From the IMG/VR virus record IMGVR_UViG_3300020182_000007: DNA of 64,000 nucleotides. The stretch is one strand, 5' to 3'. Shown piece by piece: positions 9,301 to 10,455 of this stretch. The notes beneath the pieces are model-generated. The model was not told the origin of the DNA. It did no database searches and saw only the letters and a list, made by a program, of their open reading frames with translations. Made by a program: the position numbers and the translations under genes. The stretch comes from a virus. Position 1 is the first letter of the stretch; the number at the start of each line of letters is the position of its first letter.

Positions 9301-10455
9301 TCATATTGATTGTTTAAAAATTTTTGTTTCTATTTCTTTAATTTTTTGTGCTATTTGAGGACCTTTTACACCAAACTCTTTTATTACCTTGTTTCCGTCA
9401 GTACTTGGTTTGTATTTTAAGAATGCTCTTATTAGCTTAAGATCTAATCTATTTATCTTTGAGAATACAATAATGTTGTTTTTATCCAATACCGTTCTTT
9501 CGAATTCTTTGTATAAATCAAAAACTCCTTCAGGTTTAAATGTTAATAGACTTTTTAAGAATATGACGCAATTTACTTCATCACTAGAGAAAGTCATTCG
9601 ATTCATCTCTTTTTTAATCAACTCACGGTCGTTGTTACCAAATATTGTTGCTAACTGTACTAACCATAGGCTTGACTCTATAAAATTCTCGCTAACTTGT
9701 AGATTAGGAAACATTACTGGCCAGAGGTTAAACTCGCTTACCATTTTTAGGTAGTCTTTTGTCTTCTTTGCGGATTCAATTGATTTTTTAAACTCATCTC
9801 TAATTCTCTCAGGACTAACACCCTCTAAATTATTATCGGTTAAAATAGCATCTGCAGTTTCTTTCTCAAGCCTTGATCCTGTTTTACCCGCAAATCGAAG
9901 GGCTCTTAACTTTCTTAATGGATCCTCAGCAAATCTTTCTGCGGCGATTCCAACAGTTCTAATCTTTTGATCTTGAATATCTCTTAAACCACCTACTAGA
10001 TCTATAACTTCACCCTTACTAATATCATAGAAAAGAGCATTAATTGTTAGGTCTCTTCTGAGAACGTCTTTATCTATTGTTGAGTAATTTACACCTTCAG
10101 GTCGTCTGCCACTTCCGATATCCTCGCGAAAGGTTGCGATCTCAACTCCATTTCTATCTGAAGGAATCTGTACGATAACGACTCCAAATTGCTGCCCAAC
10201 TTCTCCAATTGTTGAGTATCCAGCAGCTGTTACTATTTTAACAACCTCTTCTGGAAAAGCATCAGTTGCTAAGTCAAAATCCTTTGGCTTTTTACCAAGT
10301 ATCGCATCACGAACTGCACCTCCTACAATATAGAGCTCTTTGCCGTTCTCTTTAAATAGTTTATGTAGGTCAATAACATCAGACGGCACGTTGAGCTTAA
10401 GTGTACTCTGTGCTTCAGTTAGCAACTTAAATTCTGTATATGTTTTTATCTTCAT
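9301..10455 (-). CDS. cca: CCA-adding tRNA nucleotidyltransferase (class II, no HD domain) with CTS-like leader
   Basis: GGAVRD...KDFDLAT, RRDLTINAL and EDPLRKLRALRF motifs; N-terminus MKIKTYTEFKLLTEA. Confidence 0.9.
   Translation of the reverse strand: MKIKTYTEFKLLTEAQSTLKLNVPSDVIDLHKLFKENGKELYIVGGAVRDAILGKKPKDFDLATDAFPEEVVKIVTAAGYSTIGEVGQQFGVVIVQIPSDRNGVEIATFREDIGSGRRPEGVNYSTIDKDVLRRDLTINALFYDISKGEVIDLVGGLRDIQDQKIRTVGIAAERFAEDPLRKLRALRFAGKTGSRLEKETADAILTDNNLEGVSPERIRDEFKKSIESAKKTKDYLKMVSEFNLWPVMFPNLQVSENFIESSLWLVQLATIFGNNDRELIKKEMNRMTFSSDEVNCVIFLKSLLTFKPEGVFDLYKEFERTVLDKNNIIVFSKINRLDLKLIRAFLKYKPSTDGNKVIKEFGVKGPQIAQKIKEIETKIFKQSI

Follow-up and report, generated by a model that had tools for sequence, protein, structure and literature searches.

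Can a tRNA 3'-end enzyme form part of the cargo that a bacteriophage delivers from its virion? The question is raised by an open reading frame at 9301..10455 on the minus strand of the window, by which we mean the whole stretch of 64,000 nucleotides that was analyzed, from a T4-like, uncultured marine phage (IMG/VR virus record IMGVR_UViG_3300020182_000007). It encodes 384 residues and appears to be the precursor of a class II tRNA nucleotidyltransferase (NTase), made up of a short leader and the enzyme proper. Virion-delivered phage enzymes, such as T4 Alt, the RNA polymerases of N4 and phiKZ, and P1 Dar, are known to have DNA, transcription, the cell wall, or host proteins as their targets. 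A packaged tRNA 3'-end enzyme, if true, would extend this set to the translation apparatus, and a limited search of the literature returned nothing relevant on packaged tRNA nucleotidyltransferases or on phage cargo polyproteins. We lean toward the view that a CCA-adding-type NTase is made as a precursor with a 14-residue propeptide, and that it would be loaded into the prohead, cut after Glu14, and injected with the DNA.

The initial annotation had described the product as a class II nucleotidyltransferase, and this is borne out: the reading frame encodes a real class II tRNA nucleotidyltransferase in which every catalytic motif is present. Pfam matches were found to the PolyA_pol head (PF01743, 2.4e-34) and also to PolyA_pol_RNAbd (PF12627), and the PHROG match is to tRNA nucleotidyltransferase (1.2e-55). 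Motif A reads GGAVRD at residue 45 and is followed by the DFD carboxylates at residues 59-61, positions that are invariant or nearly so across 78 homologues. Motifs B (RRDLTIN at 133), C (DLVGGLRD at 152), D (EDPLRKLR at 177, the EDxxR of the nucleotide-selecting pocket), and E (ERIRDE at 216) follow in order. The AF2 model has a pLDDT of 96, with head, neck, body, and tail all modeled, and its best Foldseek matches are the CCA-adding enzymes of human mitochondria (4X4W), Planococcus (6QY6), Geobacillus (1MIV), and Thermotoga (3H38), at full-length TM scores of 0.68-0.73. With these class II enzymes the phage NTase shares the head-neck-body-tail fold, motifs A-E, and a similar length of the loop between motifs A and B. 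It differs from them in having ~22 more N-terminal residues, in an identity of just 22-25%, and in scores that fall below the NCBIfam equivalog cut-offs, and its activity is a prediction from sequence.

Codons 1-14 of the reading frame (10414..10455, minus strand) lie outside the conserved fold and encode a putative capsid-targeting propeptide, MKIKTYTEFKLLTE. The leader ends in a hydrophobic-x-Glu motif, and the predicted cut between Glu14 and Ala15 (Leu-Thr-Glu/Ala; 10411..10416, minus strand) would leave a mature enzyme of residues 15-384 (9304..10413, minus strand) with a mass of 41.8 kDa and a pI of 8.6. Leaderless NTase homologues begin at around residue 16-17, at the predicted mature end. 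The 14-residue extension is translated and conserved in the clade: it bears a coding signature, with a third-position entropy of 1.31 against 0.88 and 0.75, and both E14 and A15 are invariant among 13 distinct clade sequences. An internal start at residue 11, which is Met in many homologues and TTG here, was considered and rejected because conservation and a coding signature extend to Met1 and the residues ahead of position 11, and because residue 11 is often Leu. The hydrophobic-x-Glu-[AGS] site is a weak indicator when taken alone, occurring 0.5 times per 100 residues in the proteome. A second hydrophobic-x-Glu site, E260, is located in a surface loop of the NTase; it is not conserved in homologues, and no cut is therefore proposed there.

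[quoted passage not shown] The NTase leader has the same Lys-Thr-Tyr-x-Glu-Phe core and the same hydrophobic-x-Glu end. A search of 297,564 six-frame residues for the core KTYQEF, allowing one mismatch, gave a single occurrence, the N terminus of the NTase (KTYTEF). An ungapped T4-CTS probe run over 183 ORFs ranked canonical leaders of this phage 1-8, an ATP-grasp ligase 9th, and the NTase 10th-11th, and this probe and a loose leader pattern both place the NTase among the canonical-leader proteins. A strict HMM built from the 12 canonical leaders of this genome (MKHIKLFEQFINE) gave the NTase N terminus 0.5 bits and rank 24 of 183 ORFs, a score that means that the NTase leader matches the loose pattern only. 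A claim of membership in the tight leader family of the phage itself was dropped, as the strict profile scores neither the NTase nor the ATP-grasp ligase. The earlier claim that the first 15 residues match the leader is correct in a loose sense only, and in sequence the NTase leader resembles the published T4 signal more closely than it does the strict profile of its own phage.

Compared with the T4 CTS, the NTase leader has two additional residues, and loading in the present case is inferred from sequence. Foreign proteins fused to the T4 CTS are both loaded and cut (PMC8442874, PMC3012670, PMC5694885), and the T4-like tag of the NTase might also serve to load foreign proteins. The cargo of T4 consists of small basic DNA-bound proteins or an ADP-ribosyltransferase, whereas the cargo predicted here is a 42-kDa RNA enzyme.

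The wider setup of this phage is also T4-like, in that an S77 protease, a gp55-type late sigma factor, a late-type box, and the occurrence of the tag on unrelated proteins are found together. Head proteases of both the T4 and the phiKZ type cleave after Glu (PMC5694885). In the window, a prohead protease of the S77, T4 gp21 type is fused to a scaffold-like tail in a protein of 615 residues (45666..47513, minus strand; Pfam Peptidase_S77, 2.4e-13; PHROG head maturation protease, 3.2e-41), which contains 13 hydrophobic-x-Glu-[AGS] sites, to be compared with the proteome rate given above. Portal and gp23 homologues are present, and the genes are arranged in the order portal, small leader ORF, protease, a further leader ORF at 45069..45647 (minus strand), and capsid protein. 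Located between the protease and the major capsid protein, the product of 45069..45647 is a canonical-leader protein in the slot of T4 gp22, the scaffold core, and its leader ends in the single hydrophobic-x-Glu-[AGS] site of the protein. The T4-CTS-like leader proteins of this phage include products of prohead-core gene slots. The RimK-type ATP-grasp ligase (11923..13407, minus strand; Pfam RimK, 1.7e-36) is another enzyme with a leader of this type, ending in Ile-Asn-Glu/Ala; it has a second site at a domain junction, E349, and a late box 21 nt upstream of its gene.

A related strategy is found in the phiKZ-like phages SPN3US, phiKZ, and 201phi2-1. Their ejection and inner-body proteins are processed at A/S/G-x-Glu, and many of the proteins inside the head, among them enzymes such as the virion RNA polymerase, are packed into the prohead and lose their propeptides when a related protease cuts after Glu (PMC5694885). 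These phages are of a different lineage, their propeptides are mostly longer than 100 residues, and no tRNA enzyme has been reported among their cargo.

A late-like sequence ahead of the NTase gene had also been noted at the outset, and it was confirmed as the late-type promoter box GAATATATAA at 10474-10483 (minus strand), 18 nt ahead of the ATG. The box [AG]ATATATA[AG] has 41 copies on the coding strand and a single one on the opposite strand, and many ORFs begin within ~35 nt of a copy, among them the portal, protease, sheath, tube, and leader-protein genes; the portal gene bears a 10-mer identical to that of the NTase. The gp55-type late sigma factor is encoded at 50633..51013 on the minus strand (PHROG late sigma transcription factor, 9.6e-11). 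The combination of a tag that carries a head-protease motif with a late-gene promoter box suggests that the NTase is probably a packaged protein that enters the host with the DNA.

Directly upstream of the NTase is the gene for an ATP-dependent DNA ligase (10487..11776, minus strand; Pfam DNA_ligase_A_M and OB), which is itself preceded by a long early-type promoter repeat. No terminator-like site was found in the 31-nt gap between the ligase and NTase genes; the one site that scored falls within the ligase ORF and is weak, no better than expected by chance. Transcription from the early promoter is thus likely to continue into the NTase gene, so that the NTase need not be a virion protein only and may have a purely cytoplasmic role.

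Comparison with relatives bears directly on the choice between these roles. The leader is retained in ~110 of 120 close NTase homologues and by all 20 of the nearest neighbors on the family tree. The NTases of the cultured T4-like phages Aeromonas 65 and KVP40 have no leader and begin at the catalytic head itself. In contrast to these, a 66%-identical homologue (L037) fits the canonical-leader HMM of this genome with 9.7 bits, and in the 635-kb phage LR745206 a 40%-identical homologue begins with the leader type of LR745206 itself, which is carried by at least six further ORFs of that phage. At 29 of 80 viral loci, the NTase module is embedded in ORFs of up to 2409 residues (table 11, no stops). 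The order of the modules and their partners are shuffled among relatives, the partners being of end-healing types (HD, kinase, 2H), and many of these loci belong to T4-like marine phages in which the Glu junction is found exactly at the leader-end position. Among 149 relatives with an extension or in an embedded form, Glu is most frequent at the aligned boundary, at 33% compared with mostly 7-11% further upstream, and the hydrophobic-x-Glu motif occurs in 45 of 103 cases, against an expectation of 9; these counts, like all those over the NTase relatives, are of non-independent events. An S77 protease is encoded by each of the five polyprotein contigs tested, and none of the GenBank phages covers the polyprotein form, nor was that form found in any phage in culture. 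A late-like box lies within 50 nt of 15 of 28 leader forms and of 14% of background ORFs; the 10 leaderless forms have none. In the Tenacibaculum phages PTm1 and pT24, which belong to the same capsid lineage, the NTase gene is missing. This lineage, and a putative T9SS-like sorting domain encoded at 22029-22352, make a host among the marine Bacteroidota probable.

The covariation of the leader with the leader family of each phage, the Glu junction in the polyproteins, and the correlation between leader and late box favor loading into the virion, which is the best single reading of the NTase to come from the comparison with relatives. They argue against the alternative of an ordinary cytoplasmic phage enzyme, which we regard as rather unlikely. 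Such an enzyme would mature the CCA-less tRNAs of the phage and top up host CCA repair, its N-terminal helix would be a lineage-specific structural or RNA-binding addition, and the polyproteins would be stable, uncut fusions of several RNA-repair domains. This account has precedent, as large phages often encode CCA enzymes, which are interpreted as serving in RNA repair or maturation (PMC7824862; 503 phage records). The tRNA nucleotidyltransferases of GAP32, XacN1, Aeromonas 65, KVP40, and mycobacteriophages belong to the same family and are found in large phages, often together with tRNA and RNA-repair genes; the accessible part of the XacN1 paper counts a CCA tRNA nucleotidyltransferase among the tRNA-processing genes and does not name it among the virion proteins. 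Cellular fusions of CCA and HD domains also exist (E. coli type; NCBIfam PRK10885). From the present genome, the likely read-through from the ligase, the failure of the strict leader HMM on the NTase, and the lack of encoded CCA in both tRNAs of the record are all in keeping with a cytoplasmic role. Also, residues 6-22 are modeled by AF2 as one confident helix that spans the proposed cut, and the extension could therefore be a structural addition. However, the extension is dispensable, being missing in 14 of 80 loci and 39 of 142 modules, and where present it switches to match the leader family of the phage in which it is found. The invariant Glu-Ala with a Glu peak exactly at the module boundary and the shuffling of polyprotein modules are likewise difficult to accommodate in a purely cytoplasmic enzyme.

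One of the two tRNAs, tRNA-Ala(UGC), is encoded at 7441-7742 on the minus strand and has a group I intron in its T-loop (Rfam Intron_gpI, 103 bits; tRNA, 29.6 bits). ARAGORN reported no tRNA in the whole window, missing this one because its T-loop is split by the 228-nt intron. The tRNA has G3:U70 and a discriminator A directly followed by CUU; it thus lacks an encoded CCA, just as the initial annotation had stated. Adjacency to a tRNA was rejected as a conserved trait of NTase loci, since tRNA genes occur within 5 kb at 4 of 34 related loci, and the association with the CCA-less tRNA-Ala looks incidental, probably with no functional tie.

A further alternative retains loading and cutting as proposed and assigns to the cargo a different chemistry, that of a poly(A) polymerase or of some other enzyme that tails RNA, which might, for example, mark host RNAs for decay early in infection. 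We consider this improbable. Its case begins with the best PDB sequence match of the NTase, E. coli poly(A) polymerase I (PcnB, 3AQM), which scores 125 bits with the head domain, compared with ~106 bits for CCA enzymes. The NCBIfam model TIGR01942 (pcnB) gives 181.4 bits, equal to the 182.6 bits with which PRK13299 (CCA enzyme) aligns along the full NTase, and both scores are below the model cut-offs. Motif D, moreover, is common to CCA enzymes and poly(A) polymerases. However, the PcnB alignment is confined to head and neck, and the PDB sequence ranking was set aside as an ambiguous discriminator, the fold comparison alone being of help: the full-length TM score is 0.70 to CCA enzymes and a poorer 0.54 to E. 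coli poly(A) polymerase (Foldseek). The poly(A) polymerase signature [LIV][LIV]G[RK][RK]F.. is absent from the NTase and from all 270 family proteins, and the NTase has no equivalent of the basic C-terminal extension of PcnB, its CCA-like tail ending at residue 384. The loop between motifs A and B we take to resemble that of the Bacillus-type CCA enzyme (1MIV), and the end-healing character of the polyprotein partners also speaks against an RNA-tailing role. An NCBIfam search with the C-terminal 131 residues alone gave zero matches, so that this particular search does not settle the choice between CCA and poly(A). In sum, the fold, the length of the motif A-B loop, and the missing signature favor the prediction of CCA-adding over poly(A) activity.

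That the shared 5' ends are mainly DNA- or mRNA-level elements, such as cassette recombination joints or translation-start contexts, and encode a peptide without function is very improbable: the form changes frequently on the tree (62 changes among 205 modules), but the leader DNA is not conserved in the NTase clade while the residue pattern and Glu-Ala are kept and third positions vary most, and a role at this level would be compatible with targeting, as the T4 CTS acts both as a targeting peptide and as a DNA/mRNA-level element.

If loading is indeed the correct reading, then late in infection the leader would attach the NTase precursor to the core scaffold of the prohead. The S77 protease would cut after Glu14, and the peptide would leave, with the 42-kDa enzyme remaining in the head. 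The mature NTase would then enter the next host along with the DNA and could add or restore the 3'-terminal CCA of tRNAs prior to phage gene expression. Its substrates may be host tRNAs trimmed by nucleases or during starvation and, later, the CCA-less tRNAs of the phage itself. Early read-through from the ligase promoter would probably provide a cytoplasmic copy of the enzyme too.

A broader proposal, which we advance tentatively and with some doubt, is that a large and for the most part uncultured group of T4-like aquatic phages load an RNA-end repair kit into the capsid, inject it, and so mend tRNA tails and other RNA ends damaged by host immunity or starvation before their genes are expressed. 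The kit would consist of the CCA enzyme alone behind the tag, or of the enzyme joined with HD phosphohydrolase, kinase, 2H-phosphoesterase, and NMNAT-like modules in polyproteins jointed at protease sites. If true, this would be a first example of virion-delivered translation repair. tRNA is now seen as a main target of anti-phage immunity, and such a kit, if it exists, might be an answer to defenses that cleave tRNA tails, such as Cas12a3. Viral countermeasures to Cas12a3 are described as unknown by the authors of the study of its tail cleavage (PMC12851939). Because Cas12a3 takes off ACCA and with it the discriminator, rescue by a CCA-adding enzyme may be less than complete. The tag and the Glu junction may also offer a simple rule by which capsid cargo could be predicted from sequence. 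The family in which such a rule might be applied is a large one: relatives of the NTase are encoded on more than 583 viral contigs, and close, 70-83% homologues are among the matches listed from the JGI, ENA, Logan, and Tara metagenome collections.

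The ORF at 9301-10455 (-) encodes a 384-residue protein in which the Pfam PolyA_pol head domain (2.4e-34, residues 41-166) is adjoined by an RNA-binding domain. The protein is matched by the PHROG 'tRNA nucleotidyltransferase' family (1.2e-55), aligns over its full length with the NCBIfam Firmicute-type CCA enzyme model (182.6 bits, under the model's cut-off of 290), and contains the complete set of class II nucleotidyltransferase motifs A to E, which are invariant or nearly so across 78 homologues. The class II assignment of the initial annotation is thus borne out. The sequence by itself does not decide between CCA and poly(A) addition: the top PDB match by sequence, to E. 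coli poly(A) polymerase, extends over the head and neck only (125 bits versus ~106 for CCA enzymes), and the pcnB model gives the same score as the CCA model. The AlphaFold model, built with the 78 homologues, has very high confidence scores (pLDDT 96, pTM 0.90), and its best full-length fold matches are all CCA-adding enzymes, namely 4X4W (human mitochondrial), 6QY6 (Planococcus), 1MIV (Geobacillus), and 3H38 (Thermotoga), with a TM of ~0.70 to these versus 0.54 to poly(A) polymerase. The published poly(A) polymerase signature is absent from the enzyme and from all 270 family proteins fetched. Because of these fold matches and the absence of this signature, we assign the enzyme with good confidence to the CCA type, its activity being a prediction.

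The window belongs to an IMG/VR virus record of 148,784 bp (49% complete as estimated by CheckV); the G+C content is 33%, and nearly all genes of the window lie on its minus strand. A T4-type head module is present, comprising a gp20 family portal, a gp23 family major capsid protein (43586-44971 (-)), and a 615-residue prohead protease (45666-47513 (-)) that joins Peptidase_S77 to a long scaffold-like tail; a gp55-type late sigma factor is also encoded within the window. The fusion contains 13 hydrophobic-x-Glu-[AGS] sites, on the tail of ~400 residues and at four times the proteome density, and looks like a self-digesting protease-scaffold. The capsid protein is closest to those of huge uncultured phages, Prevotella Lak phages, and the Tenacibaculum phages PTm1, PTm5, and pT24, a kinship that points to a host among the Bacteroidota.

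About a dozen ORFs of the record start with a near-identical peptide of the type MKHIKLFEQFINE, and two of them occupy the gene slots of T4 prohead core proteins. The capsid targeting sequence (CTS) of T4, MKTYQEFIAE, has been defined experimentally (PMC8442874) and served as an outside probe, scored against the N termini of all 183 ORFs. The canonical leaders took ranks 1 to 8, a RimK-type ligase ranked 9th, and the enzyme 10th-11th; among all 297,564 six-frame residues, the sole occurrence of KTYQEF with at most one mismatch is the N terminus of the enzyme. In contrast, a strict HMM of the canonical leaders gives the enzyme's N terminus only 0.5 bits (rank 24 of 183). The earlier statement that the first 15 residues match the CTS-like leader therefore holds only loosely: judged by the HMM, the enzyme's leader is no member of the phage's own tight leader family but a divergent variant with two extra residues, and it is closer to the T4 CTS. 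A homologue with 66% identity, at locus L037, fits the canonical model at 9.7 bits.

The main evidence for the proposed virion loading comes from comparison with relatives, of which a profile-free search of 1.84 billion representatives returned 2,809 at E<=1e-30. The best 150 proteins contained 142 modules: 39 leaderless, 58 with an extension of 14-40 residues, and 45 deeper inside longer proteins. At 80 IMG/VR viral loci, the ORFs of which were read directly with table 11, the enzyme has a leader in 37 cases and no leader in 14; in the other 29 it forms part of a longer ORF without interruption, of up to 2409 residues. Whether homologues keep the leader was a check proposed at the outset, and most close ones do: ~110 of 120 close homologues (70-83% identity) have it, a few gene calls beginning at an internal Met, as do all 20 nearest neighbours in a tree of 205 modules. 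Across 13 distinct clade sequences, the entropy of leader codons is highest at third positions (1.31 versus 0.88 and 0.75). All the same, these sequences retain the pattern aromatic-x-x-aromatic-x-hydrophobic-hydrophobic-x-Glu-Ala, in which Glu14 and Ala15 are invariant. Switches of form on the tree are frequent (62 changes versus 93.5 +/- 4 with shuffled labels). In the 635-kb phage LR745206, a 40%-identical homologue begins with that phage's own leader type, also found on its two neighbours and at least 4 other ORFs, so the enzyme is retained but its tag differs from phage to phage.

The embedded forms are accompanied, in variable order, by HD phosphohydrolase, AAA_33 kinase-like, 2H/Acb1-like phosphoesterase, NMNAT-like cytidylyltransferase, and cupin partners, and an S77 protease is encoded in all five polyprotein-bearing contigs tested. 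At L012, the locus of a 76%-identical relative that is not syntenic with the window, reading by eye revealed a P-loop kinase-like ORF preceding the enzyme gene (5307-5705) and an RNA-ligase-like ORF 2.4 kb after it (9564-10607), with two leader-bearing ORFs between enzyme gene and ligase-like ORF. Unlike the enzyme described here, those of the cultured T4-like phages Aeromonas 65 and KVP40 lack a leader; in cultured phages related by their capsid protein, the enzyme gene is missing altogether. The KVP40 gene, an intact 365-residue ORF adjoining gene 23 (L111 671-1768; AY283928 ~226107-227204), was left unannotated in the original KVP40 record.

In T4, a hydrophobic or small residue usually stands two positions before the Glu that is cut. 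Head proteases of both the T4 and phiKZ types cleave after Glu (PMC5694885). The leader ends in Leu-Thr-Glu|Ala; hydrophobic-x-Glu-type sites are sparse in the proteome (0.5 per 100 residues), and the enzyme's sole other one, E260, is not conserved. When relatives are aligned on a conserved Pro of the enzyme, Glu is most frequent in the column of Glu14 (33%, versus mostly 7-11% further upstream), with hydrophobic residues before the peak and Ala/Ser/Gly after it, and a hydrophobic-x-Glu motif falls at the boundary in 45 of 103 cases (9 expected). A structural role for residues 1-14, as part of a helix, is possible, since in the AlphaFold model one helix comprises residues 6-22 and runs across the end of the leader; leaderless homologues start two or three residues past Glu14|Ala15, which places residues 1-14 outside the conserved fold. 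Near its start, the capsid protein has Leu-Ile-Asn-Glu|Ala (residues 4-8) and, at residue 20, a second site; the motif that ends the leaders may thus also serve to remove an N-terminal propeptide from the capsid protein.

The late-type box [AG]ATATATA[AG] has 41 copies on the coding strand and one on the opposite strand. Most lie within ~35 nt of the start of an ORF, for instance before the genes for the portal, protease, sheath, tube, and leader proteins. The late-like box noted initially before the enzyme gene is confirmed: it reads GAATATATAA, lies 18 nt before the ATG, and is identical to that of the portal gene. Among relatives, 15 of 28 genes for leader forms have a late-like box within 50 nt, compared with 0 of 10 genes for leaderless forms and a background of 14% among ORFs. 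Early- and late-type elements stand in tandem within 50 nt of the ATG at L029, L030, L039, L040, L041, L043, and L046, the late box often starting exactly 12 nt before it, leaving a late transcript almost without a 5' leader. In the window, an early-type promoter repeat of ~50-78 nt, ending in a TATAAT-like box, precedes the neighbouring ligase gene (~11780-11860 (-)), and the 31-nt gap between this gene and that of the enzyme contains no terminator-like site. Together with the late box, this makes it likely that the enzyme is supplied both early, to the cytoplasm, and late, to the head. A nearly identical repeat also stands before many small genes in many places in the record.

The CTS and gp21 processing of head cargo are textbook T4 biology; here, the counterparts are a CTS-like leader, an S77 protease, and, as putative cargo, a tRNA nucleotidyltransferase. 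On the model of the T4 internal proteins and Alt, the tagged precursor would be loaded into the head late in infection and cut by the head protease, and the mature enzyme, once injected, would repair tRNA tails at once. We lean slightly towards loading into the virion. A repair role fits the end-healing partners in polyprotein relatives and the kinase-like and RNA-ligase-like ORFs at L012. Cleavage of tRNA tails is documented as a defence in the case of Cas12a3, which removes ACCA, discriminator included (PMC12851939), and a CCA enzyme alone may not restore such tails. Phage CCA enzymes are known and have been interpreted as acting in RNA repair or maturation (PMC7824862); a literature search of limited reach found no paper on a capsid-tagged or polyprotein-embedded tRNA nucleotidyltransferase. 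On the T4 analogy, the enzyme would be a T4-style capsid cargo of an unprecedented type. The initial annotation is partly confirmed in its observation and partly supported in its interpretation.

That annotation also pointed to a phage tRNA-Ala without encoded CCA. ARAGORN detected no tRNA in the window; at 7441-7742 (-), Rfam gave a weak tRNA match and, overlapping it, a group I intron (103 bits). Read by eye, this is a tRNA-Ala(UGC) with G3:U70, a 228-nt intron in the T-loop after U54, and a discriminator A followed by CUU, and it does lack CCA. Group I introns known from bacterial tRNAs typically interrupt the anticodon loop. The record's only other tRNA, Arg(TCT), also lacks CCA. Because encoded CCA is commonly missing from phage tRNAs, and only 4 of 34 related loci have tRNA genes within 5 kb of the enzyme, we treat the adjacency as incidental. 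Large tRNA arrays at two other loci include a tRNA with anticodon CTA, of the amber suppressor type, at L087 3447-3518 and L090 2418-2489; these phages, which have the leaderless enzyme, may reassign TAG.

Two further proteins have a leader or a leader-like start. The RimK-type ATP-grasp ligase (11923-13407 (-), 494 residues, with an extra C-terminal domain) has a T4-CTS-like leader that ends in Ile-Asn-Glu|Ala, and its gene is preceded by a late-type box at a distance of 21 nt. Another hydrophobic-x-Glu-Ala site of the ligase, E349, falls at the exact junction of its two domains; it is a second candidate for a packaged enzyme. The 582-residue protein at 41036-42784 (-) has a leader-like start and two tandem late boxes upstream; with its linker Glu-Ser-Val-Val-(Thr/Asn)-Glu|Ala, which occurs three times, it looks like a protease-jointed polyprotein.
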